From Gammaproteobacteria bacterium (lineage in GTDB: Bacteria; Pseudomonadota; Gammaproteobacteria; Arenicellales; JAANXG01): a DNA stretch of 64,000 nucleotides. Positions 6,691 through 34,197 of the stretch are shown piece after piece. The stretch spans positions 534 to 64,533 of the forward strand of contig JAHEKE010000007.1 in NCBI GenBank assembly GCA_024638505.1, in the 5' to 3' direction. The position numbers and the translations under genes are program-made. The notes under the pieces are model-generated. The model did no database searches. It had not been told where the DNA came from and saw only the letters and a list, made by a program, of their open reading frames with translations. Each line of letters opens with the position of its first letter. Within the stretch, counting starts at the first letter, position 1.

Positions 6691-7494
6691 GTGATGAGAT
6701 TCATCGATCTCAACCATTTGACTGTGAATATAGCCACGGAAGGCACGCATGGGGCACCCACGCTGGTGTTCATTAATTCACTCGGTACCGACTTTCGTAT
6801 TTGGGACGAGGTTTTACCCGCGTTTGCATCTCACTTTTATCTGGTGCGTTATGATAAACGTGGGCACGGCCTGTCCGATGCACCCGCGGGGGAATATCGT
6901 TTACAGGACCATATCAGTGATCTGCACGCACTGCTCGCCAAACTCAACGTCAGGCAGGCGATTCTGTGCGGCGTTTCGGTAGGAGGCATGATCGCTCAGG
7001 GCCTGTGTGCGCAGCACCCGGACCGGGTGCTGGCCCTGGTGCTGTGCGATACTGCCGCCAAAATCGGGACGATCGAACTGTGGAATGAACGAATCGATGG
7101 CGTTACACATGCAGGCATTGCGTCGATTGCAGACAACATCCTGCAACGCTGGTTTTCAAGTGATTTTCATCAACAAAGAGCGGTCGAGCTGTCGGGGTGG
7201 CGCAACATGCTGACGCGTACGCCTGTTACCGGCTATGCTGGAACCTGTGCTGCCATTCGTGATGCGGACTTGACCGAGTCGGTGCGGACCATTACCTGTC
7301 CTGCGCTGGCGGTATGTGGGGATCAAGATGGCGCGACGCCTCCCGATGTTGTACGTACTCTAGTGGATCTAATACCAGACTGCCGGTTTAAGCTGATCAA
7401 AGGAGCGGGTCATCTTCCCAGCATTGAACAGCCCGAAGTCTTGATCAACTGCATGACGTCCTTTTTCAAGGAGATAAATGTTGGCGGACTCTGA
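6691..7494 (+). CDS. pcaD: 3-oxoadipate enol-lactonase (alpha/beta hydrolase)
   Basis: Alpha/beta-hydrolase with nucleophile elbow GVSVGG. Sits directly upstream of pcaC/HG. GTG at 6691 or ATG at 6694. Confidence 0.8.
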   Translation: MMRFIDLNHLTVNIATEGTHGAPTLVFINSLGTDFRIWDEVLPAFASHFYLVRYDKRGHGLSDAPAGEYRLQDHISDLHALLAKLNVRQAILCGVSVGGMIAQGLCAQHPDRVLALVLCDTAAKIGTIELWNERIDGVTHAGIASIADNILQRWFSSDFHQQRAVELSGWRNMLTRTPVTGYAGTCAAIRDADLTESVRTITCPALAVCGDQDGATPPDVVRTLVDLIPDCRFKLIKGAGHLPSIEQPEVLINCMTSFFKEINVGGL

Positions 7495-7882
7495 CTATGA
7501 TGCGGGCATGAGCCGGCGTCGACAGGTGCTTGGACGCAACCACGTGGCTCAGGCGGAGGCTGACAAAACACCGTTTGATTCCCGTTTTCAGCAATACATT
7601 ACTGAATCCGCGTGGGGTGCGGTTTGGTCGGACCCGACCATAGACCTGCGCACCCGCAGCCTGTTGACCATTGCGCTGCTGGCTGCGCTTGGCCATGAAA
7701 AAGAGTTGGCTATGCACGTACGGGCGACCGGGCAAACGGGTGTCACTGCCGAAGAGGTGAGAGAAGCCTTAATGCACGTTGCAGTCTATGCGGGGGTTCC
7801 CGCCGCTAATCGAGCGTTCGCCATCGCCAAGCGCGCGCTGGCAGAGGCAGCGGCAGTTGGCGGGAGTCAAAAGCTGGAATGA
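7478..7882 (+). CDS. pcaC: 4-carboxymuconolactone decarboxylase
   Basis: 134 aa of the carboxymuconolactone decarboxylase family (YDAGMSRRRQVLG..., AVYAGVPAA). Overlaps pcaD by 17 nt. Confidence 0.85.
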   Translation: MLADSDYDAGMSRRRQVLGRNHVAQAEADKTPFDSRFQQYITESAWGAVWSDPTIDLRTRSLLTIALLAALGHEKELAMHVRATGQTGVTAEEVREALMHVAVYAGVPAANRAFAIAKRALAEAAAVGGSQKLE

Positions 7883-8586
7883 CCGACTCTGAGTATTCTA
7901 AACGGGACTGGCAGTGTCACCCGCCATACCGGCATGATCCTTACAAGTCGACCAGCTTACGCGGCCCGCGCCAGCCGCTGGTGCCCATCAAGCATACCTT
8001 GTCTGAGATCACCGGGCCGATTTACGGGCATGGTGATATCGATCCTGTGGATAGTGATTTGACCAGGAATGCAACCCGTGGCGGCGAAGCGCTGGGTGAA
8101 CGCATCATTGTAACCGGCCGCGTGCTGGACGACAGAGGCAGGCCGGTATCCGGCACCCTGATCGAGGTCTGGCAGGCTAATGCCGCCGGTCGCTACATCC
8201 ACAAAGTTGACCAGCACGATGCGCCAATAGATCCCAACTTCTTCGGCGCAGGCCGCTTTCTAACGGATGATGACGGTCGGTACAGGATGATCACGGTGAA
8301 ACCTGGGGCATATCCATGGGGCAATCACCCCAACGCCTGGCGGCCTTCGCATATCCATTTCTCAATCCTTGGCCCGTGCATTGCGACCCGGCTGGTGACG
8401 CAGATGTATTTTCCAGGCGACCCACTGCTCCCTTATGATCCTATATTCAATTCAACACCCGACGTGAAGGCGCGGCAGCGCTTAGTCGCCAATTTTTCCC
8501 TGGATATCACCGAACCAGGGCGGGCGCTGGGCTACGAGTTTGATATTGTTCTGCGTGGCCGAGACGAGACGCCAACGGAACAGTGA
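7879..8586 (+). CDS. pcaH: Protocatechuate 3,4-dioxygenase beta subunit
   Basis: Intradiol dioxygenase motifs WQANAAGRY and PSHIHFSI. ATGA overlap with pcaC. Confidence 0.9.
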   Translation: MTDSEYSKRDWQCHPPYRHDPYKSTSLRGPRQPLVPIKHTLSEITGPIYGHGDIDPVDSDLTRNATRGGEALGERIIVTGRVLDDRGRPVSGTLIEVWQANAAGRYIHKVDQHDAPIDPNFFGAGRFLTDDDGRYRMITVKPGAYPWGNHPNAWRPSHIHFSILGPCIATRLVTQMYFPGDPLLPYDPIFNSTPDVKARQRLVANFSLDITEPGRALGYEFDIVLRGRDETPTEQ

Positions 8587-9170
8587 GCATGTTGAAGCAG
8601 ACGCCGTCACAAACCATTGGCCCGTTTTTCGCCTATGGTTTAACCCCCGAGGAATATGGCAAGTCGGGTATTTGGAGCGGCATTCTGGTTAACGATGCCA
8701 CCAAAGGTGAACGCATACGCATCCATGGTCAGGTCATCGACGGGGCAGGCGAGCCGGTAACCGATGCGCTGCTCGAGATCTGGCAGGCAGACCATGATGG
8801 TCGCTATCATCATCCTTCCGCGAATGAAAAGGAGGTATTCCAGGGATTTGGCCGGCGGTCCACTGATGAGAACGGCATGTATTCGTTCATGACCATAAAA
8901 CCGGGCCGCGTACCGGCGACGCAGCAAAGGAAGCAGGCGCCCCATGTAAATTTAATCGTGTTTTCGCGGGGTATACTTGTGCACGCTTATACCCGGATCT
9001 ATTTCTCAGACGAACTGGAGGCCAATAACTCAGACCCGGTGCTGCAAAGCGTTGACCACAAACGCCGTGCCACACTGATCGCCAACAGAGATGAATCGCG
9101 GGCCGTTCCCCGCTACAACTTCAACGTTCATCTTCAGGGTAGGCATGAAACTGTATTTTTTGACGTATAA
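8583..9170 (+). CDS. pcaG: Protocatechuate 3,4-dioxygenase alpha subunit
   Basis: TPSQTIGPFF, EIWQADHDGRY. Overlaps the pcaH stop. Confidence 0.9.
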   Translation: MSMLKQTPSQTIGPFFAYGLTPEEYGKSGIWSGILVNDATKGERIRIHGQVIDGAGEPVTDALLEIWQADHDGRYHHPSANEKEVFQGFGRRSTDENGMYSFMTIKPGRVPATQQRKQAPHVNLIVFSRGILVHAYTRIYFSDELEANNSDPVLQSVDHKRRATLIANRDESRAVPRYNFNVHLQGRHETVFFDV

Positions 9171-9222
9171 GAATCAGCTCAATCGCTGACCTTTTGTTCG
9201 CTTGAAACAGCAGGATTCGGCG

Positions 9223-10395
9223 GTGCGTACACAGGTAGGAATTGTAGGATCGGGGCCTGCCGGATTGCTGTTAGCCGAGATTCTGCGATGCAACGGGATC
9301 GATGCCGTCATCGTGGAATGTAAATCCCGCGCCTATGTGGAGGGGCGGATAAGAGCAGGCGTTTTGGAGCAGGGAACCGTCGATCTTTTGCGTGAGATCG
9401 GTGTCGCACATCGACTGGAGCAAGAGGGGCTGGTACACGACGGCGTGGATATATGCCTTGATGGAGATCGTCATCACATCAATTTCCGCGAATTGATCGG
9501 GAAAACGGTCGTCATCTATGGCCAGACCGAGATAACGAAAGACCTGATCCAAGCGCGACTCGCAGCGGGTGGGAACATCCTTTTCGACGCAGGCGAAGTA
9601 AGCGTGCACAATCTTGATACGGACAAACCGAGTATTAACTGTGTTATCAACGGCAGCCGTTTGCGTATTGACTGCGATTTTATCGCCGGCTGTGATGGTT
9701 TCCATGGCATATGCAGAGACAGTTTGCCTGCGGGACAAATCAAGACTTTTGGACAGACTTACCCCTTCGCCTGGCTCGGCGCGCTGGCGGAGTCGGTGCC
9801 TCCTTCCAAACAGCTGATTTATGTGAGGAGTTCACGAGGATTCGCTTTGTTCAGCATGCGCTCAAGAACGATCTCCAGAAACTATTTGCAGGTTGGCCCG
9901 GATGAGGATATCGGACAGTGGCCGGATGAGCGGATCTGGCAAGAGTTGGCGCAACGCCTGGGCGAAGAACACAGCGCCTGCATCGATGCGGGACGTATTG
10001 TGGAAAAAAGCATTACGCAAATGCGCAGTTTCGTGGCGCAGCCTATGCGCCACGGCCGGTTGTTTCTGGCAGGTGACGCGGCCCATATTGTACCGCCGAC
10101 CGGCGCCAAAGGTTTGAATCTGGCGGCGGCAGACGTGCGCTGTCTGGCGGGAGCGCTGAAGCAGTACTACCAGTCAGGCAGCGAGGACGTCCTGCACAAG
10201 TACAGCGCGACCGCGCTCAACCGAGTGTGGAAGGCGCAGCGATTCTCCCGCTGGATGACCTCATTGCTGCATATTTACCCCGCGCAGCAGGATTTCGAAA
10301 ATCAAATTCATCAGGCCGAGTTGGACTATGTGCTGTCCTCGAAAGCCGCGTTAACTTCATTTGCCGAAAATTATGTGGGTTTGCCCTATCACTAA
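9223..10395 (+). CDS. pobA: 4-hydroxybenzoate 3-monooxygenase
   Basis: VGIVGSGPAGLLLA and LAGDAAHIVPPTGAKGLN. GTG at 9223 with AGGA 7 nt upstream preferred over TTG at 9202. Confidence 0.9.
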   Translation: MRTQVGIVGSGPAGLLLAEILRCNGIDAVIVECKSRAYVEGRIRAGVLEQGTVDLLREIGVAHRLEQEGLVHDGVDICLDGDRHHINFRELIGKTVVIYGQTEITKDLIQARLAAGGNILFDAGEVSVHNLDTDKPSINCVINGSRLRIDCDFIAGCDGFHGICRDSLPAGQIKTFGQTYPFAWLGALAESVPPSKQLIYVRSSRGFALFSMRSRTISRNYLQVGPDEDIGQWPDERIWQELAQRLGEEHSACIDAGRIVEKSITQMRSFVAQPMRHGRLFLAGDAAHIVPPTGAKGLNLAAADVRCLAGALKQYYQSGSEDVLHKYSATALNRVWKAQRFSRWMTSLLHIYPAQQDFENQIHQAELDYVLSSKAALTSFAENYVGLPYH

Positions 10396-10410
10396 CGACA
10401 ATATCGAACG

Positions 10411-11745
10411 ATGACCATAGCGCTTTTTGATTCAGCGATATTTGGACCGCTGTTTGCAGATCGTCGCGTCACCGAGCTGTTCTCCGACCAGAGTCGCGTG
10501 CAAGCCATGCTCGACGTTGAAATCGCATTGGCCGCTGTCCAGGCAGAACTTGGGATCATTCCGGTCGACGCTGCAAAAAAGATCGAACAAGCCGCAGCTG
10601 ACTTTAGTCCGGATTGGAGATCGCTTGGAGATGGGACCAGACGGGCAGGTGTGCCCGTGATCGACCTGCTCCGCCAGCTGCGGGGACACATGGACTCTGC
10701 GGCTGCGCGCTATCTGCACTGGGGTGCCACTTCGCAAGATATTGTTGATACCGCTGGCGTGCTTCATCTGCGCACGGTTATTGATTTCTTGCAAACCCAG
10801 CTGGTCGCGTTAAGCTTGCGTCTGGCAAAGCTTGCCGACCGCCACCGCCACACGCTGATGTCGGGGCGAACGCGGGCGCAACAGGCTCTGCCGATCACTT
10901 TCGGCTTGAAAGTCGCCGTCTGGTTGATGCCGTTAATTCGTCACCGTCAGCGGCTGGAAGAGCTGAAGGGTAGGGTACTCGTGCTTCAATTTGGCGGTGC
11001 TGTGGGCACGCTGGCCGCGCTGGGTGATCGTGGTATTGAAGTGGCCGAAGCCCTGGCCCGCCGATTAAGCTTATCCGCGCCCGCTATCTCCTGGCATACC
11101 CAGCGTGACAGCCTGGCTGAGTTCGCGGATTGGTTGGCGTTGGTCTCTGGCAGCCTTGGTAAAATAGGGCAGGACGTGGTCTGGCTGTCGCAATCGGAAA
11201 TCGCAGAGGTGGCGGAGATCGCTCAGGGTGAGGCAGGCGCATCCTCCACCATGCCGCACAAATCCAACCCCATCACCAGCGAGATGCTGATTACCGCCGC
11301 GCGGATGAATACGACATTGCTCAGTAACATGCATCACGCCCTGCTGGCGGAGCATGAACGAGCGATACACGGCTGGCAGCTGGAGTGGAACACCCTGCCA
11401 CAGATGATATGTTGCCTGGGAAACGCGCTGGTGCAGGCTATATCCCTGATTGACAACCTGAGTGTCGATGAACAGCGCATGCGGCTTAACCTGGAAGGTT
11501 CTCACGGTCTGGTCCTGGCGGAAGCGGCAACTCTCGCCCTGGCAAAGCACGTTGACCGAACGGAGGCGGAAAGCATCGTCAAAGCGGCCTGTGCAGAGGT
11601 CAGGAGCAGTGGGCGCCACCTGTTGGATGTATTGCAGCAGGGGACAAGTCATCCCGTGCCGTGGGAGCGTATGCGTGATCCGTCGGGCTATTTGGGGCAG
11701 ACGCAAGCCCTGATCGACCGGGTATTGGCGTCGCTGCGGCAGTGA
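10411..11745 (+). CDS. pcaB: 3-carboxy-cis,cis-muconate cycloisomerase
   Basis: Fumarase/aspartase-superfamily signature GASSTMPHKSNP. pca context. Confidence 0.85.
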   Translation: MTIALFDSAIFGPLFADRRVTELFSDQSRVQAMLDVEIALAAVQAELGIIPVDAAKKIEQAAADFSPDWRSLGDGTRRAGVPVIDLLRQLRGHMDSAAARYLHWGATSQDIVDTAGVLHLRTVIDFLQTQLVALSLRLAKLADRHRHTLMSGRTRAQQALPITFGLKVAVWLMPLIRHRQRLEELKGRVLVLQFGGAVGTLAALGDRGIEVAEALARRLSLSAPAISWHTQRDSLAEFADWLALVSGSLGKIGQDVVWLSQSEIAEVAEIAQGEAGASSTMPHKSNPITSEMLITAARMNTTLLSNMHHALLAEHERAIHGWQLEWNTLPQMICCLGNALVQAISLIDNLSVDEQRMRLNLEGSHGLVLAEAATLALAKHVDRTEAESIVKAACAEVRSSGRHLLDVLQQGTSHPVPWERMRDPSGYLGQTQALIDRVLASLRQ

Positions 11746-17527: not shown

Positions 17528-18691
17528 CTAAAAACGAACGCTTTCAACAGGTCGTGAAGTGTTAGCATCAGTGCGGACGATGCGATTCCAGCCGTGTATG
17601 TCCTCGGTCACCCCCGTTTGGATGTCTACGATAGTCTGGTATAGCCATTTGCTGGCAAGATTTTCCGGTGAGACATCGAAGTTGAGCGTTTTTTCGCCGT
17701 AAGCGATTCGACTGACCGGCGCAATCACTGCGGCCGTACCTGCACCAAACACTTCCTGTAAATCTCCCCTGTCATAAGCCAGGATGACTTCTTCCATGGA
17801 AACGGGGCGTTCTTCAAACTTTTCGCCGTGGTCTTTAAGCAGCGTCAAAACGCTCTCTCGGGTCACCCCCGGTAGAATGGTGCCCTTAAGCGGGGGAGTG
17901 ACAAACGTATCACCGATTTTAAAAAATATGTTCATCTGACCCACCTCTTCGACAAAGCAGTGATCACGGCTGTCCAGCCATAAGGTCTGATCGAATCCCT
18001 GTTCCACGCTGTCGGTGCCCGGCCTCAAGGTCGCCGCGTAATTGCCGCCGGTTTTGGCAAAACCCGTTCCGCCCATGGCCGCCCGGGTGTAGTTGGGTTC
18101 AGCGCGGAGCGAAACACCGCTGTCGGTGGTTGAAAAATAGCCTTTGACCGGAGCGGTGATAATCAGGAACAAATAGCGATCGGACGCTTTGACCAGCAGA
18201 TTGGGTTCAGTAGCAAAAACAAGCGGTCGGATGTAAAGCGACTCGCCTCGTCGTTGCGGCAGCCATTTTTCATCGACCGTAACGAGCTGTTCGATTGCTG
18301 AGCAGAACAGCTCCTGATCAATTGGTGGGATGCACAGCCGCGCACACGACTGTTCCAGTCTGTCTGCATTTCGATCCGGCCGAAAGATGCGGGGCACCCC
18401 GTCGACGCCTCTGAACGCTTTGAGGCCCTCAAAAACCGCCTGACCGTAGTGCAGGCAGAGTGCGCCTGGCTCCATGGCGATCGGGCCGTAGGGCACGATT
18501 TGCGCGCTATGCCAGCGACCGTCTGTAAACTCGCAGCGGAACATATGATCAGAGAATACGTCGCCAAAGCCGAGATGATCGAAATCGACGCCTGACAGGC
18601 GGCTGCGTTGGCAAAGCGTGATCGGCAGGGCAGGATTGGGCACGGGTAATCGATTGATTGGAATTCTCAACAATTGTTGAGAATATGCCAT
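17528..18691 (-). CDS. ilvE: Branched-chain amino acid aminotransferase (long, class IV)
   Basis: LGFGDVFSDHMF N-terminal motif and class IV aminotransferase core. The start codon may lie further in. Confidence 0.85.
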   Translation of the reverse strand: MAYSQQLLRIPINRLPVPNPALPITLCQRSRLSGVDFDHLGFGDVFSDHMFRCEFTDGRWHSAQIVPYGPIAMEPGALCLHYGQAVFEGLKAFRGVDGVPRIFRPDRNADRLEQSCARLCIPPIDQELFCSAIEQLVTVDEKWLPQRRGESLYIRPLVFATEPNLLVKASDRYLFLIITAPVKGYFSTTDSGVSLRAEPNYTRAAMGGTGFAKTGGNYAATLRPGTDSVEQGFDQTLWLDSRDHCFVEEVGQMNIFFKIGDTFVTPPLKGTILPGVTRESVLTLLKDHGEKFEERPVSMEEVILAYDRGDLQEVFGAGTAAVIAPVSRIAYGEKTLNFDVSPENLASKWLYQTIVDIQTGVTEDIHGWNRIVRTDANTSRPVESVRF

Positions 18692-18886
18692 AAAAAAGCC
18701 AGGGCACCAATCCGGGGTGAACGCCGCTTGACAAGGTTGGGATCACGCCCAGGTTGTAGAATCAAGTATCGAAGTTGTTCATTCCCAAGTAATAAAGCTG
18801 ACAGCGAGAGCCCCCTGCACGGCCGGCCATACGTTGGGCAAAGTGTTACTGATTCTGCCGCTGCCGGCGGCGACATCAAGTTCGAG

Positions 18887-24925: not shown

Positions 24926-25848
24926 GTTGCACCCTGCTGGTAGAAGTAGGCGGGACCTACACGCGCTGTGCGCTCACCTCTGGCGACATAGGCGCTGTCC
25001 AGGTATTCATCAACACCGACCACATGAATCTGGCTTCGGTGCTGCGGCGATACTACGAAAAGCTGCCCGGTGCGTCACCGTCGGCCGCACTGATTGCCAT
25101 CGCCGCACCCGTTACTGCTGAGCGAGTGCACCTGACAAACCTGAACTGGGAGGTAGACGGGGCTGAGCTGGCGGACGAATTCGCATTGGAGCGCGTTAGG
25201 CTGGTCAACGATTTCGCCGCGCTGGCTTGCGCGATCCCGCATTTGCCGCGCAAGGATCTGCTGGTATTGCACAAAGGACGCTCTGATTCTAACCAGCACA
25301 ATATCGCAGTCATGGGTCCGGGTACCGGGCTCGGTGTGTCCGGGCTGGTGCGCTGCGGCAATGAATGGCATCCCGTGTCCGGCGAAGGCGGGCACGTTAC
25401 GCTCGCCGCCGCCGCCGAGCGGGAAGAAGTAGTGATCGGCCGGCTGCGCGCGCGGTTCGGTCACGTGTCCGCCGAGCGGGCGCTGTCGGGTCGGGGCTTG
25501 GTGAACCTGTACCAGGCACTGAACGATGGTTCTGCGGTTAAAGCGCCAGAGGACGTCACCCGTCTCGCCCAGCAGGGTGACGGTGCCGCTATGGAGGCGT
25601 TGGACCTGTTTTTTAAGTTCTTGGGAACGGTTGCTGCGGATCTTGCGTTAACGCTGGGCGCGCGCGGCGGCCTGTATCTGGGTGGCGGCATCCTGCCGGC
25701 GATTAAGCAACAGCTGCAGAACTCTCAGTTCATCTCCAGGTTTCGGGCCAAGGGGCGTTATTCCGACTATCTTTCGGCAATACCGGTGTGTTTGATCATT
25801 GCCGACAATCCGGCTCTGCTGGGATTGAACAACTATCCGGATAGCTGA
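24922..25848 (+). CDS. glk: Glucokinase
   Basis: LLVEVGGTYTRCAL ATPase fold N-terminus and Glk-like length. TTG at 24922 overlaps the otsA stop. Confidence 0.8.
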   Translation: MSCTLLVEVGGTYTRCALTSGDIGAVQVFINTDHMNLASVLRRYYEKLPGASPSAALIAIAAPVTAERVHLTNLNWEVDGAELADEFALERVRLVNDFAALACAIPHLPRKDLLVLHKGRSDSNQHNIAVMGPGTGLGVSGLVRCGNEWHPVSGEGGHVTLAAAAEREEVVIGRLRARFGHVSAERALSGRGLVNLYQALNDGSAVKAPEDVTRLAQQGDGAAMEALDLFFKFLGTVAADLALTLGARGGLYLGGGILPAIKQQLQNSQFISRFRAKGRYSDYLSAIPVCLIIADNPALLGLNNYPDS

Positions 25849-25949
25849 GCCAGTCGGCGATTAGGCCTGCAGCATAAACCAGCCTGTTGGTTCCGGTTAA
25901 ACGTTTTAGGTAGCATTGAGCGACTTCAAGCCGGCGGAGTCTTGCCCAC

Positions 25950-27281
25950 ATGATGAGCACCGAACAAAACGAGCGCATTACCCTGAGCGGAAAGGGCAGG
26001 CCTGCCGGCGAGCTGCTGCGCCGTTACTGGCAGCCGGTGGCGCTGGTAGATGAGCTGGCCCCGCGTCGTCCCGTGATACCTGTAAAAATCATGGGCGAGG
26101 AGCTGGTTTTGTTCCGCAATGTGAGCGGTACGCTCGGGCTGATCGGTCGTTTCTGTCCTCACCGTGGCGCGGATCTGTGCTACGGGCGGCTCGAAGACGG
26201 CGGCCTGCGCTGCGCTTTTCACGGCTGGCTGTTCGATAGAGCGGGGCAGTGCCTGGAACAGCCGGCGGAACCGGAAACCAGCCGTATGTTTCAAAGAATC
26301 AAAACCGTTGGATATCCTGTGACCGAGAAGAATGGAATCGTCTTTGCCTACATGGGGCCGGGTGAGCCACCCGGATTCGCCGCGTTTGACTGTTTTACCG
26401 CCCCCCTTGAGTACACCTTTGCCTTTAAAGGCTGGATTGAATCAAACTGGTTGCAGGCACTGGAGGTCGGCATTGACCCGGCCCATGCCTCTTTTCTGCA
26501 TCGCTACCTGGAAGACGAAGATCCCGGGAAATCTTACGGTAAGCAGTTCCGTGACCTGGTCGGCGACAGCGAGATACCCATGACGAGGCTGCTGCGGGAG
26601 TATCCTCGACCGGAGATCAACGTGGAGCATACGGATTACGGTTTGCGCATTACCACGCTGCGCCATATGGAAAACGGAAAAACACACGTGCGTGTAACCA
26701 ATCAAATATTTCCGGCGGCCATCACCATTCCTCTGTCCAATGAGATGACCATCACCCAGTGGCACGTTCCGATAGACGATTACAATTGTTACTGGTACGC
26801 CATCTTCACCAGTTTTGGCGACAAGGTGGACAAGGACCTCATGCGGCGCCAGCGCCTGGCGCTATATCAGCTGCCCGATTATGTTCCCAATAAGAACAAG
26901 CGTAACAACTATGGTTATGATCCCGCGGAGCAGGCGGTAAAAACCTACACCGGCATGGGATTGGATATCAACGTGCACGACCAGTGGGCGGTCGAATCCA
27001 TGGGGCCGATACAGGACCGGACCAAAGAACATTTAGCGAAAAGCGATCGAGCGATTGTCCAGTATCGCAAAATCCTGCTTTCCGCGATCGCCCAGGTAAG
27101 CTCCGGTAAAGTCCATGACTTGCCGCTGCGGGGAGACGATGCCGCCTGTGCCAGCATCAAAGGCCCGGTCGCCATCGACACCATCGCTCGCAAAGAGGAC
27201 TGGACGATCGCCTGGACCGAACAGGATGCGCAACGTCGTGCCGCCTGTGCCTGGCAGCCAAGTGAGGTAAGGATGGAATGA
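25950..27281 (+). CDS. Rieske [2Fe-2S] non-haem iron oxygenase, alpha subunit (phthalate-dioxygenase-like family)
   Basis: Rieske CPHRG...CAFHGW (CxH-N16-CxxH) and mononuclear Fe motif DPAHASFLH. Confidence 0.85.
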   Translation: MMSTEQNERITLSGKGRPAGELLRRYWQPVALVDELAPRRPVIPVKIMGEELVLFRNVSGTLGLIGRFCPHRGADLCYGRLEDGGLRCAFHGWLFDRAGQCLEQPAEPETSRMFQRIKTVGYPVTEKNGIVFAYMGPGEPPGFAAFDCFTAPLEYTFAFKGWIESNWLQALEVGIDPAHASFLHRYLEDEDPGKSYGKQFRDLVGDSEIPMTRLLREYPRPEINVEHTDYGLRITTLRHMENGKTHVRVTNQIFPAAITIPLSNEMTITQWHVPIDDYNCYWYAIFTSFGDKVDKDLMRRQRLALYQLPDYVPNKNKRNNYGYDPAEQAVKTYTGMGLDINVHDQWAVESMGPIQDRTKEHLAKSDRAIVQYRKILLSAIAQVSSGKVHDLPLRGDDAACASIKGPVAIDTIARKEDWTIAWTEQDAQRRAACAWQPSEVRME

Positions 27282-28732
27282 ATCAACACGCTGGCGCGGA
27301 AGAGGGGGCAAAATGTCGCGCGCTTTGGACTGACGAGGATCACGCCGCTGCGGAGGCGGTACTCGCCAGAGTAAAGGAACAGGCGATAGAGACCATACGC
27401 ATATCGTTCGTTGATCAGCATGGCATCCTGCGCGGAAAGACGCTGATGGCAAGCGGCCTGAAAGGCGTTTTCGACCGCGGGGTCAGTATGACCAGCACGC
27501 TGCTGCTAAAGGATACGTCCCACACTACGGTGTTTCCCGTGTGGAAGGTGGACGCGGGTTTCGGCCCGGATAAATTTGTTGGTGCATCCGATTTTCTGGT
27601 GCTGCCCGATCCCAAAACCTTCCGCGTTTTGCCTTGGTCACCGCACAGCGGTTGGATGTTGAGCGATATTTATTTTAAGGACGGACAACCCATTGCTTTC
27701 TCCTCTCGCCGCATACTGCAAGACGCCGTCGGCAGATTGCATAAGCGCGGTCTGGACATGTTGACCGGCCTGGAGGTGGAGTTCCATGTTTTTAAGCTGG
27801 ATGATCCGCATCTGCAGCACGATAACGCAGACAGACCAGAGGACCCGCCGCGTACCAGTCTCCTTGCGCACGGCTATCAATACCTGACTGAGCAGCGTTA
27901 CGACCAGCTGGAACAAGTGATGGACTTGATCCGGCGTAATGCCTCCGGGCTGGACCTGCCCGTTCGATCCATGGAGGCGGAATTCGGACCCAGTCAATTC
28001 GAATTCACCTTTCATCCTGGTACGGCTGTAACCTGTGCCGATTCGCTGGTTCTGTTCCGCAGCATGGTCAAGCAGGTATGCAGGCGCGAGGGATACCATG
28101 CCACCTTCATGTGTAGACCCAAGCTGAAGAACATCATGGCCAGCGGCTGGCATCTGCACCAATCTATTATTGACCGCCGCAGTGGAGAAAATCTTTTTCA
28201 GCCCAAACCCGGTGAAGTATTGACTAAACTCGGTGGGCAGTGGGTAGCCGGTCTGCTGCATCACGCCGGCGAGAGCTGTCTGCTTTCGACGCCCACGATC
28301 AACGGTTACAAACGCTACCAGCCTTTCGCCCTGGCGCCGGATCGCATCCAGTGGGGGCAGGATAATCGCGGTGCAATGATTCGCGTCATCACCCACAGCG
28401 ATGATCCGGCGTCGCGCATCGAGAACCGCGTGGGTGATCCGGCCGCCAATCCCTGTTTATTCATCGCAGCGCAGATACTATGCGGATTGGACGGTATAGA
28501 AAACGATCTCGTCCCACCGGATGCGGTAGAAACTCCTTACGACAGCGGCGCACAGATGCTGCCGAAGAGCCTGCTCGAGGCCCTGCAGTTGTTTCGCGAC
28601 AGCGCATTTTACCGATCGGTCTGGGGTGACCAGATTGTGGATTACTTCTCACATATCAAGCAAGCCGAATGGAATCGCTATATCAGCAGCGTATCAGAGT
28701 GGGAGCATCGGGAATACTTTTCACTGTTCTAA
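27278..28732 (+). CDS. Glutamine synthetase-family ligase (gamma-glutamyl-amine synthetase-like)
   Basis: 484 aa GlnA-type catalytic domain (GLEVEFHVF, MEAEFGPSQFEF, NRGAMIRV, RIENRVGD). ATGA overlap with the Rieske gene. Confidence 0.85.
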   Translation: MNQHAGAEEGAKCRALWTDEDHAAAEAVLARVKEQAIETIRISFVDQHGILRGKTLMASGLKGVFDRGVSMTSTLLLKDTSHTTVFPVWKVDAGFGPDKFVGASDFLVLPDPKTFRVLPWSPHSGWMLSDIYFKDGQPIAFSSRRILQDAVGRLHKRGLDMLTGLEVEFHVFKLDDPHLQHDNADRPEDPPRTSLLAHGYQYLTEQRYDQLEQVMDLIRRNASGLDLPVRSMEAEFGPSQFEFTFHPGTAVTCADSLVLFRSMVKQVCRREGYHATFMCRPKLKNIMASGWHLHQSIIDRRSGENLFQPKPGEVLTKLGGQWVAGLLHHAGESCLLSTPTINGYKRYQPFALAPDRIQWGQDNRGAMIRVITHSDDPASRIENRVGDPAANPCLFIAAQILCGLDGIENDLVPPDAVETPYDSGAQMLPKSLLEALQLFRDSAFYRSVWGDQIVDYFSHIKQAEWNRYISSVSEWEHREYFSLF

Positions 28733-28776
28733 TGATTCGCACTCGCCTGCGCAGGCCAAGAGACCAGAAAAGCAGC

Positions 28777-29478
28777 TTATTCCTCATCTATTGGTCCTAA
28801 TTCGAAAAACTGACCGCGACTCATGATTCCTAGAATTCGACGCCCGTTGATTAATCGGGTCGTGCCGCTCTCCGCCAGTTCGTAGAAAACGCTGCGACTG
28901 AGCAGTGCGTTTAACTGGCCTCTAATCCTGACCAAAGGTATCGGGCCTCTTTCATCCTGTTCCACCCATAGCGGATGATCCTGGTCTACCACGACTACAT
29001 CTCCGACATTAGTCTGCAGCGCGACTGCCGGTCCCCGCGCTTCAACCCGAGATTCCATTCTGGTCGCGATAAAGGGCGCGAGATCTACCTGCACCGCGAC
29101 CTTTTCCACTGGCGTAACCAGAAAGTATCCGTCATCATCCCGCCGCAGGATGCGGGAGAAAAGTTCAACCATGCGCTGCCTGTTGATCGGCGTCCCCTGG
29201 TAGTACCAGGTCCCGTCGCGAGCAATGCGCATGTCGATGTCCTGCACACCATCCGGATCCCACAGATGCACCGGCGGCAGCTGGGTTGATCCTGCCTCGG
29301 ACAATGCGTGGAACAAGGAATCTGGATCGTATGGCACGGCTCGCTTTACTCGTGAATATCTACTTACAGGCAAGGCCAGGCGAGACGAAGGCTTGGCTAT
29401 ACGCTCGATCTGCGAACGACTGGGGAAGTATAGTGTGATAAAAGCCCGGCTGCATTGATGATTAGACGGCCCGTACAC
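28777..29478 (-). CDS. DUF1285-like protein
   Basis: IDMRIARDGTWYYQGTPINRQRMVELFSRIL matches my memory of DUF1285. The N-terminal ~50 aa look non-conserved, so the true start may be internal. Confidence 0.55.
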   Translation of the reverse strand: MYGPSNHQCSRAFITLYFPSRSQIERIAKPSSRLALPVSRYSRVKRAVPYDPDSLFHALSEAGSTQLPPVHLWDPDGVQDIDMRIARDGTWYYQGTPINRQRMVELFSRILRRDDDGYFLVTPVEKVAVQVDLAPFIATRMESRVEARGPAVALQTNVGDVVVVDQDHPLWVEQDERGPIPLVRIRGQLNALLSRSVFYELAESGTTRLINGRRILGIMSRGQFFELGPIDEE

Positions 29479-31767: not shown

Positions 31768-34197
31768 ATGAAATCTCACGTGCAAGTTGCCGTCATCGGC
31801 GGTGGGGTGGTGGGCTGCAGCGTTTTGTATCACCTCACCAAGTTCGGTTGGGACGAGGTCGTCCTGTTTGAGCGTTCGGAATTGACCTCAGGTTCCACCT
31901 GGCATGCGGCAGGCGGATTTCATACGCTCAATGCCGACACCAATATGGCCGCCCTGCAAGGCTACACCATCGGTCTGTATAAGGAACTAGAGACGTTATC
32001 CGGTCAGTCCTGTGGCTTGCATCACGTCGGTGGCATCACCCTGGCAACTACGCCGGAGCGAATGGATCATCTCACCGCCGAACGCGCCAAGCACCGCTAC
32101 ATGGGCCTCGAGACTGAACTGGTCAGCCCGGATGAAATCCGCGAACTGTCGCCCATCATAAACACCGATGGCGTGATCGGTGGTCTCTATGACCCTCTGG
32201 ACGGCCACCTGGATCCCTCGGGGACGACGCATGCCTACGCCAAGGCAGCCCAGCAGCAGGGCGCTGAGATTTATCTGCGTAACCGCGTACTTGCGACCAA
32301 GCCGCGCGGGGACGGCACCTGGGAGCTGGTCACAGAGGAAGGCTCGCTCATCGCGGAGCACGTGGTCAATGCCGCCGGCCTGTGGGCACGGGAGGTGGGG
32401 AGAATGGCCGGCGTTTATCTGCCGCTGCACCCCATGGAGCACCAGTACCTGGCCACGGACGATATACCGCAGATCTATGAGCGCGATCAGGAGCTGCCGC
32501 ACGTTATGGATCCTGGCGGCGAGAGCTACCTGCGGCAGGAGGGGCGGGGCCTGGTGATCGGGTTTTATGAACAGGCGTGTGAGCCCTGGGCTGTGCGGGG
32601 TACCAGCTGGGACTTTGGTCACGAGCTGCTGAACGATAAGCTGGAGCGGATTGGGGATTCGCTGGAGATCGCATACCAACGATATCCGGTGCTGGCGCAG
32701 GCGGGAATCAAGCGGATCATCAACGGCCCCTTTACCTTCGCCCCTGACGGTAACCCGCTGGTCGGGCCCGTGCCCGGGCTGAGGAACTACTGGTCGGCCT
32801 GTGCCGTTATGGCGGGATTCAGCCAGGGCGGTGGGGTGGGGCTTACCCTGGCGCAGTGGATGGTGCACGGTGAACCGGAGCGCGACGTTTTTGCAATGGA
32901 CGTTGCCCGTTACGGTGACTACTGCACCGAGTCGTTTACGCGCATAAAGGTTACTGAAAACTATCAGCGGCGTTTCGCGGTGTCTTATCCAAACGAAGAA
33001 CTGCCCGCCGGCAGACCGTTTTATACCACGCCAGCTTATGGCTTGTGGCGCCAGCAAAATGCGGTATTTGGGTCGGCCTACGGCATGGAACACGTCAATT
33101 ATTTTGCCCGGCCTGATGAACCGCGCCTCGAAATTCCGTCATTCCGACGCTCCAACGCGTTTGCCAGGGTGGCAGAGGAATGCCGCGCCGTGCGTACCGC
33201 AGTCGGAATCAACGAAATTCATAACTTCAGTAAGTTTGAGATGACGGGGCAGGGAGTAGCCGACTTTCTTGATCATATTATGGCGGGGCGCATTCCGCCG
33301 GTTGGTCGACTGAGCTTGAGCCTCATGCTCAGCCCCAAGGGGCGCATTATCGGCGATTTCACTTTATCCCGTCTGGCGCAAAACCGTTTCCAAGCCACCG
33401 CGTCTTACGCCGCGCAGGCCTACCACATGCGATGGTTTGAAGCGCACCAGCGCGAGCACCCGGGGGTCGAAATCAATAACATATCCAACGAGCGCATCGG
33501 TTTTCAGATAGCGGGCCCGAAAGCGCGCGATCTTTTAAGCAGCGTCACATCAGATGATGTATCCGCTGCGGCGTTCAAGTTCATGCAGGTACGGCGAATG
33601 CCAGTGGGACTGTGCGACGCCATTGTGCAGCGCGTGAGCTACACCGGTGATCTGGGATATGAAATCTACGTCGATCGGGATCATCAGGTGTCACTGTTCC
33701 AGACGCTGTGGGAGGCGGGTCAGCAGTTCGGTTTACGCCCCTTCGGCATGCGCGCAATGATGAGTCTGCGGCTGGAAAAGTCTTTCGGCTCCTGGCTGCG
33801 GGAGTACCGGCCGGACTACACGCCCCTGGAAACGGGGCTTGATCGGTTCGTCATGTACGACAAAGCGTCTGATTTTGTTGGCAAGCAGGCTGCCATCGCG
33901 GATCGGCAGAATGACGGTGACAGTAAAAGACGGAAGCTTTGTACCTTTGCGGTGGATGCGGACGATGCGGATGTGTGGGCGGATGAGCCGATCTGGCTGG
34001 ACGGCCGGGTAGCCGGATTCGTCACCTCGGGTGGCTATGCGCATTATTCAAAGCAAAGCGTCGCATTCGGTTTTCTACCGACAGCCGCAATAGAAGAGGG
34101 GTTAGCGGTGGAAATCGAAATACTGGGTCAGCGTCGACCAGCAAAGCTGTATTCCTCGCCTCTGTTCGACCCGGAGGCAAGGCGCATGCGCGGTTGA
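31768..34197 (+). CDS. Dimethylglycine/sarcosine dehydrogenase-family enzyme (FAD oxidoreductase fused to GcvT-type folate-binding domain)
   Basis: VAVIGGGVVGCSVLYHL FAD fold. 809 aa with a C-terminal aminomethyltransferase-like domain (YTGDLGYEIY). Confidence 0.85.
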   Translation: MKSHVQVAVIGGGVVGCSVLYHLTKFGWDEVVLFERSELTSGSTWHAAGGFHTLNADTNMAALQGYTIGLYKELETLSGQSCGLHHVGGITLATTPERMDHLTAERAKHRYMGLETELVSPDEIRELSPIINTDGVIGGLYDPLDGHLDPSGTTHAYAKAAQQQGAEIYLRNRVLATKPRGDGTWELVTEEGSLIAEHVVNAAGLWAREVGRMAGVYLPLHPMEHQYLATDDIPQIYERDQELPHVMDPGGESYLRQEGRGLVIGFYEQACEPWAVRGTSWDFGHELLNDKLERIGDSLEIAYQRYPVLAQAGIKRIINGPFTFAPDGNPLVGPVPGLRNYWSACAVMAGFSQGGGVGLTLAQWMVHGEPERDVFAMDVARYGDYCTESFTRIKVTENYQRRFAVSYPNEELPAGRPFYTTPAYGLWRQQNAVFGSAYGMEHVNYFARPDEPRLEIPSFRRSNAFARVAEECRAVRTAVGINEIHNFSKFEMTGQGVADFLDHIMAGRIPPVGRLSLSLMLSPKGRIIGDFTLSRLAQNRFQATASYAAQAYHMRWFEAHQREHPGVEINNISNERIGFQIAGPKARDLLSSVTSDDVSAAAFKFMQVRRMPVGLCDAIVQRVSYTGDLGYEIYVDRDHQVSLFQTLWEAGQQFGLRPFGMRAMMSLRLEKSFGSWLREYRPDYTPLETGLDRFVMYDKASDFVGKQAAIADRQNDGDSKRRKLCTFAVDADDADVWADEPIWLDGRVAGFVTSGGYAHYSKQSVAFGFLPTAAIEEGLAVEIEILGQRRPAKLYSSPLFDPEARRMRG

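Follow-up and report, generated by a model that had tools for sequence, protein, structure and literature searches.

The closest described relative of the gene pair analysed here is the sad operon of Hydrogenophaga (intermedia) PBC, encoding the 4-aminobenzenesulfonate 3,4-dioxygenase (Gan et al. 2012, Microbiology 158:1933, via PMC5632844). As far as this work is excerpted in PMC5632844, the operon comprises the alpha-only oxygenase SadA, the glutamine synthetase (GS)-like protein SadB, a ferredoxin and a reductase and deaminates 4-aminobenzenesulfonate to 4-sulfocatechol, its authors proposing a natural substrate structurally near sulfanilate. The aniline, chloroaniline and 1-naphthylamine systems (AtdA1-A5, TdnQTA1A2B, DcaQTA1A2B and NpaA1-A5) follow a related logic, a GS-like ligase making the gamma-glutamyl anilide and a Rieske oxygenase turning this anilide into a catechol (PMC11335346; PMC4539516). 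The phthalate and isophthalate dioxygenases (PDO and IPDO) of Comamonas testosteroni KF1 (7fjl and 9ina) are alpha-only Rieske enzymes requiring no ligase partner and releasing stable cis-dihydrodiols.

Here, we provide a computational analysis of a Rieske oxygenase/GS-like ligase gene pair, which is an ordinary and intact copy of a widespread two-gene module belonging to a known kind of pathway. Our data suggest that the pair forms the core of a dioxygenase system of the sad type, which depends on glutamylation and deaminates an acidic arylamine, probably converting 4-aminobenzoate to protocatechuate. The literature searched here contained no paper describing either this marine pair or a pathway that glutamylates 4-aminobenzoate; such a pathway has reportedly been observed in Paraburkholderia terrae KU-15, which we did not count as evidence.

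Results

Architecture of the locus

The window, i.e. the whole stretch of DNA analysed, comprises 64,000 nucleotides of a gammaproteobacterial contig (JAHEKE010000007.1). It contains the following features:

6691-11745, plus strand: pcaD-pcaC-pcaH-pcaG-pobA-pcaB, protocatechuate branch of the beta-ketoadipate pathway (NCBIfam equivalogs)
5' neighbour of the pair, plus strand: glk, separated by a 101-nt gap
25950-27281, plus strand: Rieske oxygenase gene, SadA-like, alpha-only (ORF, 443 aa, ATG start)
27278-27281, plus strand: ATGA stop/start overlap of the oxygenase and ligase genes (direct sequence reading)
27278-28732, plus strand: GS-like ligase gene, SadB-like (ORF, 484 aa, ATG start)
3' neighbour of the pair, convergent: DUF1285 gene (ORF and Pfam)
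31768-34197: DAO+GCV_T (dimethylglycine-dehydrogenase-like) gene (Pfam)

A first-pass annotation of this DNA had described a PDO-type Rieske gene joined to a GS-like gene by ATGA and had stated that no reductase, amidotransferase-like subunit or hydrolase adjoins them. Both descriptions hold, the former by the ORFs, the sequence and Pfam, the latter by the ORFs and profile matches around the pair, which place no ferredoxin gene next to it either. An AAGGA Shine-Dalgarno-like motif lies a few bases 5' of the ATGA within the end of the oxygenase gene. The ORF list shows no beta-subunit gene adjoining the oxygenase gene, and no IclR regulator or transporter marks the pair in the window. No GC anomaly is present at the pair, and a promoter/terminator scan of 25600-29100 gave no signal above shuffled expectation. 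The host is marine, and a xenobiotic context and IS elements are absent around the pair.

Comparison with sad-type loci

The sulfanilate degrader Novosphingobium resinovorum SA1 carries the pair in identical order on its plasmid pSA3 (59% identity for the oxygenase, 51% for the ligase), where it adjoins genes for a maleylacetate reductase, a 2Fe-2S ferredoxin, an FAD reductase and a glutaminase. The operon on plasmid 1 of Polaromonas JS666, of which the oxygenase homologue is 61% identical, encodes the Rieske protein, the GS-like protein, a ferredoxin, an FAD reductase, a Liv-type ABC importer and a type-1 amidotransferase. Both loci thus show a PDO-type alpha-only oxygenase gene followed by the GS-like gene on one strand, as observed here, with identities of 59-61% for the oxygenase and 50-51% for the ligase. 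Among the active-site columns shared with them are R248, H246, Q270, W271 and H272 in the oxygenase and, in the loop of the ligase, K78-D79. The locus here differs in that no ferredoxin, reductase, transporter, amidotransferase or regulator gene stands beside the pair, and in position 83 of the ligase loop, where Thr takes the place of Arg. The first-pass annotation had considered the pair not a copy of any of the loci it listed; this stands insofar as no such accessory genes adjoin it, but a precedent outside that list exists in the sad operon, to which the homologous pairs of SA1 and JS666 lead.

The sad-type assignment runs via these SA1 and JS666 homologues and the literature descriptions of SadA and SadB, the experimentally tested Hydrogenophaga PBC proteins being WP_009515254.1 (SadA) and WP_009515256.1 (SadB). 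A search with the Polaromonas JS666 protein named no Hydrogenophaga protein in its best 120 hits.

The ligase belongs to the clade of arylamine ligases

The ligase matches Pfam Gln-synt_C (1.2e-79) and stays below the NCBIfam cut-offs for GlnA (TIGR00653; 226.7, cut-off 429), PuuA (NF045547; 224, cut-off 650) and type III GS (TIGR03105; 239, cut-off 470). Its top solved structure is NpaA1 (8wwu, 4.6e-126). In our ligase tree, all Rieske-linked ligases group with NpaA1 and TdnQ in one clade with an SH-aLRT of 100 and a long stem, including the SadB-like proteins of SA1 and JS666, the ligases of the aniline-type systems sharing 41-44% identity with the ligase here. GlnA, PuuA (from E. coli) and a GmaS-type ligase are all placed outside this clade; they share with the ligase the GS fold as well as the residues for ATP, metal and glutamate. 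Two assignments were rejected on these grounds: PuuA or a GmaS-type ligase, with NCBIfam scores far under the cut-offs and both outside the clade, and a true type I GlnA, being below its cut-off, outside the clade and missing the ammonium-site residues and Y397. The genome encodes its own GlnA on contig C66 (866 bits) and a GmaS-type ligase on contig C62 (667 bits).

All ATP, metal and glutamate residues are intact in the ligase, the residue table listing E166, E168, E235, E242, H292, H294, R346, R364, R369, E382 and R384. The GlnA residues D50, S53, E327 and Y397 are missing, being replaced by Thr (D50), Leu (S53) and Leu (E327) or absent (Y397); judged by these residues, the ligase is without an ammonium site and is predicted to be a gamma-glutamyl-arylamide synthetase. 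The amine pocket sits at a subunit interface.

The hydrophobic, aromatic amine tunnel of the aniline-type enzymes (F75, M81/W81 and F86) is replaced by K78, T84 and W89. Our alignments show Lys78 without exception (78/78 and 120/120 family members), and NpaA1 has Phe75 at this place, a tunnel position of the aniline and naphthylamine enzymes that mutagenesis has shown to matter. The alignments suggest K78 may contribute to the choice of an acidic substrate. Loop position 83, Thr here and Arg or Lys in most relatives, varies between R, K, T and A across the family, so specificity may differ within it.

The role that the first-pass annotation had given to the GS-like protein, gamma-glutamylation in partnership with the Rieske enzyme, is thereby supported by tree and residues as well as by the conservation of the pair described below, and its question of whether the ligase clusters with true GlnA is answered by the position outside GlnA. 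Among the precedents it had named, the aniline-type ligases proved close, belonging to the same clade, but PuuA and a GmaS-type ligase did not.

The oxygenase is of the phthalate/isophthalate dioxygenase type

The oxygenase shows Pfam matches to Rieske (1.8e-18) and LigXa_C (1.4e-26). Among solved structures, it matches isophthalate dioxygenase 9ina best (4.1e-66), followed by phthalate dioxygenase 7fjl (1.6e-59), according to which it is an alpha-only oxygenase of the phthalate/isophthalate dioxygenase type with the same Rieske fold family and an LigXa_C-type catalytic domain. Without exception, the oxygenase family members (83/83) keep the Rieske ligands C69, H71, C88 and H91, the likely Fe ligands H179, H184 and D344, and R248, which aligns with the carboxylate-anchoring Arg of PDO (R244) and IPDO (R234) (PMC12445078). 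Rieske ligands, Fe ligands and this Arg are thus common to PDO, IPDO and the oxygenase, whereas PDO R207 and IPDO H257 are not kept and the E-values are merely 1e-59 to 1e-66. By analogy, R248 may anchor a carboxylate of the substrate, for which the glutamyl alpha-carboxylate could equally be the partner.

The aniline-type oxygenases differ more strongly, being two-subunit alpha-beta enzymes of another Rieske family (22-26% identity in blastp between NpaA3 and the Rieske proteins of 13 related loci). Their clusters carry an amidotransferase-like subunit and a dedicated reductase, neither of which adjoins the pair here. As the naphthylamine system works without its amidotransferase-like subunit, the lack of one here does not speak against a functional pair.

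The pair is conserved across genomes

We compared the 80 best loci from other species, of which one is cut off at a contig end leaving 79 evaluable, and identified the neighbouring genes by searching all ORFs for homologues. In 75/79 evaluable loci, the GS-like gene is the immediate 3' neighbour of the Rieske gene, and in four it is absent, an adjacency far beyond chance, answering the first-pass proposal to check the co-occurrence of the two genes. The order is kept across Rhodobacterales, Hyphomicrobiales, Rhodospirillales, Granulosicoccaceae and Oceanobacter, and the intergenic gap ranges from -8 to 159 nt (median 17 nt, overlap in 13/75; starts are approximate). The module is present in at least hundreds of species, mostly marine Alpha- and Gammaproteobacteria. 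Its cultivable holders include Rhodobium orientis DSM 11290, Sulfitobacter sediminilitoris and Oceanobacter sp. 1_MG-2023. TupA/ModE-like, DUF1285 and trehalose/glk neighbours were rejected as partners, accompanying the pair in 0/80 loci.

The comparison also bears on an aliphatic substrate. According to this explanation, which is modelled on the isopropylamine (Ipu) pathway, the ligase glutamylates an aliphatic or osmolyte-derived amine and the Rieske protein is a monooxygenase or demethylase for the resulting gamma-glutamyl amide; a link to the dimethylglycine-dehydrogenase-like gene would then be conceivable. The genome is rich in Rieske oxygenases and in GS paralogues (eight GS-family genes, one of GmaS-type), and compared with the aniline enzymes, the ligase has a more polar loop, both of which fit such a function. 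However, the ligase is nested among arylamine ligases with PuuA and the GmaS-type outside the clade, the nearest characterised relatives of the oxygenase are ring dioxygenases for aromatic acids, and the recurrent neighbours of the pair, i.e. IclR regulators, Liv-type ABC systems, aryl-CoA-ligase-like genes and pca genes, are typical of aromatic-acid catabolism. The dimethylglycine-dehydrogenase-like gene, pointed out downstream by the first-pass annotation and indeed present at 31768-34197, stands beside the pair in 0/80 loci and was rejected as a functional partner. We consider an aliphatic substrate highly unlikely.

Electron-transfer partners mostly do not adjoin the pair

Dedicated ferredoxin and reductase genes of the SadD/SadC kind are found nowhere in the window. 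They adjoin the pair in 4/80 related loci, showing that they are not universal to the wider family. The 98%-complete genome contains no SadD-like ferredoxin; it has one weak FAD reductase match (28% identity, contig C131), FNR-type reductases of uncertain assignment (contigs C66 and C24) and an amidotransferase homologue (34%, contig C24). The lack of adjoining partners and of a SadD-like ferredoxin in the assembly would be compatible with the pair being a non-functional remnant that lacks its own electron-transfer partners. Against this, both frames are intact with all catalytic residues present, close homologues at 70-83% identity show purifying conservation, and 76/80 related loci are likewise without adjoining partners, suggesting a borrowed reductase being the norm for the family. 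A remnant therefore appears hardly credible.

Protocatechuate genes near the pair and in its holders

The six proteins encoded by the pca/pobA cluster all pass the respective equivalog thresholds of NCBIfam (TIGR02427, TIGR02425, TIGR02422, TIGR02423, TIGR02360 and TIGR02426). The cluster lies 14 kb 5' of the pair with unrelated genes in between. Among the 80 related loci, pca genes directly adjoin the pair in two: in locus L018, pcaD-C-H-G follow directly 3' of the GS-like gene on the same strand with tight spacing, and in locus L049, pcaCHG and pobA are located just 5' of the pair. Across 61 related genomes, a true pcaH or a strong putative LigB-type dioxygenase is present in 10/11 holders of the Rieske gene and in 6/50 non-holders (Fisher p = 9e-7, phylogeny not corrected for). 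The pca cluster is the probable downstream route for the predicted product.

The same mechanism of glutamylation followed by Rieske oxygenation might act on another aromatic amine, e.g. anthranilate, an aminophenol, an aminophenyl-acid or a natural sulfonated aniline, to give a product other than protocatechuate, the proximity of the pca genes then being coincidental. The substrate of the characterised relative is a sulfonate and not a carboxylate, the variable loop position 83 suggests sub-specificities, and direct adjacency to pca genes is restricted to the two loci mentioned. The strong enrichment of protocatechuate-type ring-cleavage genes in the pair holders and the tightly spaced arrangement with pcaDCHG on one strand in L018 argue for protocatechuate, and the invariant Lys and Arg suit an anionic para-substituted aniline; another arylamine is in our view unlikely. 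The amine substrate, left open-ended by the first-pass annotation, is hence narrowed to what is probably an acidic arylamine, with the pca cluster as the likely downstream pathway.

Discussion

Our analysis supports a model according to which the pair deaminates 4-aminobenzoate, or a similar acidic arylamine, in a glutamylation-dependent manner. Homology and residue conservation suggest that the ligase would use ATP to form gamma-glutamyl phosphate and would transfer the glutamyl group onto the amino group of an acidic aromatic amine, most likely 4-aminobenzoate, yielding the gamma-glutamyl-anilide; sulfanilate would be a xenobiotic analogue of this proposed substrate. The homo-oligomeric, alpha-only oxygenase, receiving electrons from a reductase/ferredoxin encoded elsewhere, would then dioxygenate two adjacent ring carbons, one of them carrying the amide nitrogen, and the unstable diol would regain its aromaticity through loss of the glutamyl-bound nitrogen, presumably in the form of glutamine, leaving a catechol, which in the case of 4-aminobenzoate would be protocatechuate. 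From there, protocatechuate could enter the pathway encoded by the pcaHG, pcaB, pcaC and pcaD genes of the window. The ATGA overlap would couple translation of ligase and oxygenase, so that the reactive anilide would be made solely where its consumer exists.

The pair reveals no new kind of mechanism. It suggests a likely route for the turnover of 4-aminobenzoate, a vitamin precursor, in marine bacteria. A further possibility, which we regard as doubtful although somewhat less so than a switch to another arylamine, is that the module is dedicated to scavenging nitrogen and carbon from a natural dissolved arylamine, which may be 4-aminobenzoate as folate precursor or breakdown product or an unrecognised marine aniline, the Thr/Ala-83 subclade, to which the pair belongs, perhaps having a substrate unlike that of the Arg/Lys-83 majority. 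If so, the aryl nitrogen would be passed straight to the glutamine amide pool.

GS-like genes of this kind should not be counted as ammonium assimilation genes. In hundreds of genomes, the oxygenase is annotated merely as 'aromatic ring-hydroxylating dioxygenase subunit alpha' and the ligase as 'glutamine synthetase family protein', annotations that would gain a testable function by recognising the pair as a sad-type arylamine deaminating system.

Overall reading and gene organization

We assign the gene pair, from a marine host, to the sad-type arylamine dioxygenases, which depend on glutamylation and are related to aniline dioxygenase, with 4-aminobenzoate being the most likely predicted substrate and protocatechuate the most likely predicted product. 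This kind of system is already known; the remaining interest lies in the natural substrate of the pair and in its wide distribution. The two genes are:

25950-27281, + strand: SadA-like Rieske oxygenase ORF, 443 aa, Pfam Rieske and LigXa_C
27278-28732, + strand, co-oriented: SadB-like, glutamine-synthetase (GS)-like ligase ORF, 484 aa, Pfam Gln-synt_C

Read from the sequence, the ATGA at 27278-27281 joins the oxygenase stop to the overlapping ligase start, and a ribosome-binding motif (AAGGA) lies within the oxygenase gene shortly 5' of that start. Upstream lies glk, which ends the run otsB-GH15-otsA-glk; downstream follow a convergent DUF1285 gene, genes for a TupA-like binding protein and for a ModE/PBP regulator, and a DAO+GCV_T gene (31768-34197), and no reductase, ferredoxin, amidotransferase or hydrolase gene adjoins the pair in the window. 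The first-pass annotation had described both ORFs, the ATGA overlap, the domains, the lack of adjacent partner genes and the downstream DAO+GCV_T gene, and this description is correct because ORFs, overlap, Pfam domains and neighbours all match. The pair is real, intact and translationally coupled. Promoter, terminator and compositional signals were sought in the pair region, none of them distinguishing the pair from its surroundings.

Conservation of the pair in other genomes

Homologues of each protein number in the thousands, several contigs being common to both match lists. We compared the best 80 of at least 598 related stretches in a one-genome-per-species collection and found the GS-like gene directly 3' of the Rieske gene in 75, the remainder being one locus ending at a contig edge and four without a ligase gene, showing that the pairing of the two genes is real. 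The hosts include Rhodobacterales, Hyphomicrobiales, Rhodospirillales, Granulosicoccaceae and Oceanobacter, among others, and the intergenic gap has an estimated median of 17 nt (range -8 to 159 nt; start calls being approximate). None of the window's other neighbours recurs in any of the 80 loci, including the dimethylglycine-dehydrogenase-like gene at 31768-34197, whose suggested link to the pair is thus not borne out; it has no relation to the pair. This gene, solitary and following the ModE/PBP-type regulator, encodes an 809-aa DAO + FAO_M + GCV_T protein resembling dimethylglycine/sarcosine dehydrogenases.

Electron-transfer partners adjoin the pair in only 4/80 loci, so their absence next to it is typical of the family; a genome search revealed no SadD-like ferredoxin in the window's own genome. 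The naphthylamine system can do without its amidotransferase, and an amidotransferase homologue with 34% identity is present on another contig (C24) of this genome. The pair is accessory and patchy, since the Rieske gene occurs in only 11 of 61 relatives of this genome. Elsewhere, IclR regulators and Liv-type ABC systems recur as its neighbours.

The ligase groups with arylamine gamma-glutamyl ligases

With the NCBIfam models for GlnA, type III GS and PuuA, the ligase scores under each cut-off. Its closest solved structure is NpaA1 (8wwu; E 4.6e-126), followed at ~1e-55 by an entry deposited as glutamine synthetase; NpaA1, which belongs to the aniline-dioxygenase family, is a gamma-glutamyl ligase for 1-naphthylamine (PMC11335346). 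In a maximum-likelihood tree of 88 sequences all Rieske-linked ligases and the Novosphingobium resinovorum and Polaromonas homologues form a single long-stemmed clade (SH-aLRT 100), within which NpaA1 and TdnQ are nested. The ligase is thereby set apart from true GlnA: outside the clade branch E. coli PuuA and, from the window's own genome, GlnA, the GmaS-type ligase and five further GS-family paralogues.

Residue comparison with GS revealed all metal, ATP and glutamate ligands being present; Asp50 and Ser53 are missing, and so are Glu327 of the flap and the tyrosine for adenylylation. The retained ligands and the loss of Asp50, Ser53 and Glu327 suggest that the enzyme should form gamma-glutamyl phosphate without using ammonium as GlnA does. 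In NpaA1, the amine tunnel is lined by the neighbouring subunit's loop V68-M81, and F75, M81, F86 and W235 control the use of aniline versus naphthylamine; the window ligase has K78, T84, W89 and F236 at these positions. K78-D79 is invariant in 78/78 and 120/120 family members, and, judged from the alignment, a Lys replacing the tunnel Phe would be expected for an aniline carrying an anionic group. Loop position 83 is Thr in the window ligase and close relatives (SHTT), whereas most family members have Arg or Lys (SH(R/K)T); the counts at this position in the 120 nearest homologues are R44, T26, A24, K7 and V6. This variation may mark sub-specificities.

The oxygenase resembles phthalate and isophthalate dioxygenases

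The closest solved structures of the oxygenase are isophthalate dioxygenase (IPDO, 9ina; 4.1e-66) and phthalate dioxygenase (PDO, 7fjl; 1.6e-59), the VanA/DdmC, CarAa, NdmA, KshA and CntA types being much weaker matches. The Rieske ligands, the iron-site residues (two His and one Asp) and R248 show no variation among 83 family members; R248 aligns with PDO R244 and IPDO R234; these form a salt bridge with the substrate carboxylate, and IPDO R234 is essential.

Relation to sad-type systems and predicted pathway

For the Hydrogenophaga PBC sad operon, kept across Hydrogenophaga, PMC5632844 names sadA as dioxygenase and sadB as 'glutamine synthetase', credits the operon with 4-aminobenzenesulfonate deamination to 4-sulfocatechol and suggests a sulfanilate-like natural substrate. 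Plasmid pSA3 of the sulfanilate degrader N. resinovorum SA1 carries the pair in identical order (59% and 51% identity to the window pair), with maleylacetate reductase, 2Fe-2S ferredoxin, FAD reductase and glutaminase (17590-18501 of the retrieved locus) genes nearby and flanking IS elements. Deletion of the Hydrogenophaga sadB was reportedly found by Gan et al. in 2012 to abolish activity in E. coli. Polaromonas JS666 plasmid 1 (61% and 50% identity) encodes Rieske, GS-like, ferredoxin, FAD reductase, a Liv-type ABC importer and, last in the operon, a type-1 amidotransferase (18066-18788 of its locus). The aniline-type ligases are more distant (TdnQ 44%, NpaA1 41%), and their clusters encode an amidotransferase and an oxygenase with alpha and beta subunits. 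The chemistry and the pSA3 glutaminase gene suggest that nitrogen would be released as glutamine; this predicted glutamine, or the gamma-glutamyl anilide, could be acted on by the pSA3 glutaminase or the JS666 amidotransferase.

The window also contains:

6691-11745: pcaD, pcaC, pcaH, pcaG, pobA, pcaB cluster, all six over NCBIfam equivalog cut-offs

The cluster encodes 4-hydroxybenzoate hydroxylase together with the complete beta-ketoadipate pathway branch for protocatechuate. The clearest genomic tie between pair and protocatechuate is a locus of an uncultured Rhizobiaceae (L018, 3423-8623), in which Rieske, GS-like, pcaD, pcaC, pcaH and pcaG genes lie tightly spaced on one strand, with an IclR regulator and an aryl-CoA-ligase-like gene, both divergent, 5' of the pair. 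In a second locus (L049) pcaCHG and pobA lie immediately 5' of the pair. Among the 61 relatives, a true pcaH or a strong, putative LigB-type dioxygenase occurs in 10/11 holders of the Rieske gene versus 6/50 non-holders (Fisher p = 9e-7, ignoring shared ancestry). The window pca cluster, the linkage in both loci, the enrichment among holders and the recurrent IclR and Liv-type neighbours together point to conversion of an aminobenzoate-like substrate to protocatechuate.

Paralogues in the same genome

The genome holds eight GS-family genes, on contigs including C66, C62, C136, C64 and C33. The C66 gene is the true GlnA, and C62:67596-68945 exceeds the type III/GmaS-type cut-off; a second gene on C62 lies ~10 kb from the latter, and C136 carries two ~3 kb apart. 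A second PDO-type Rieske oxygenase (C48:15165-16235; 31-34% identity to SadA-like proteins) has no GS-like gene beside it and retains the Arg equivalent to R248.
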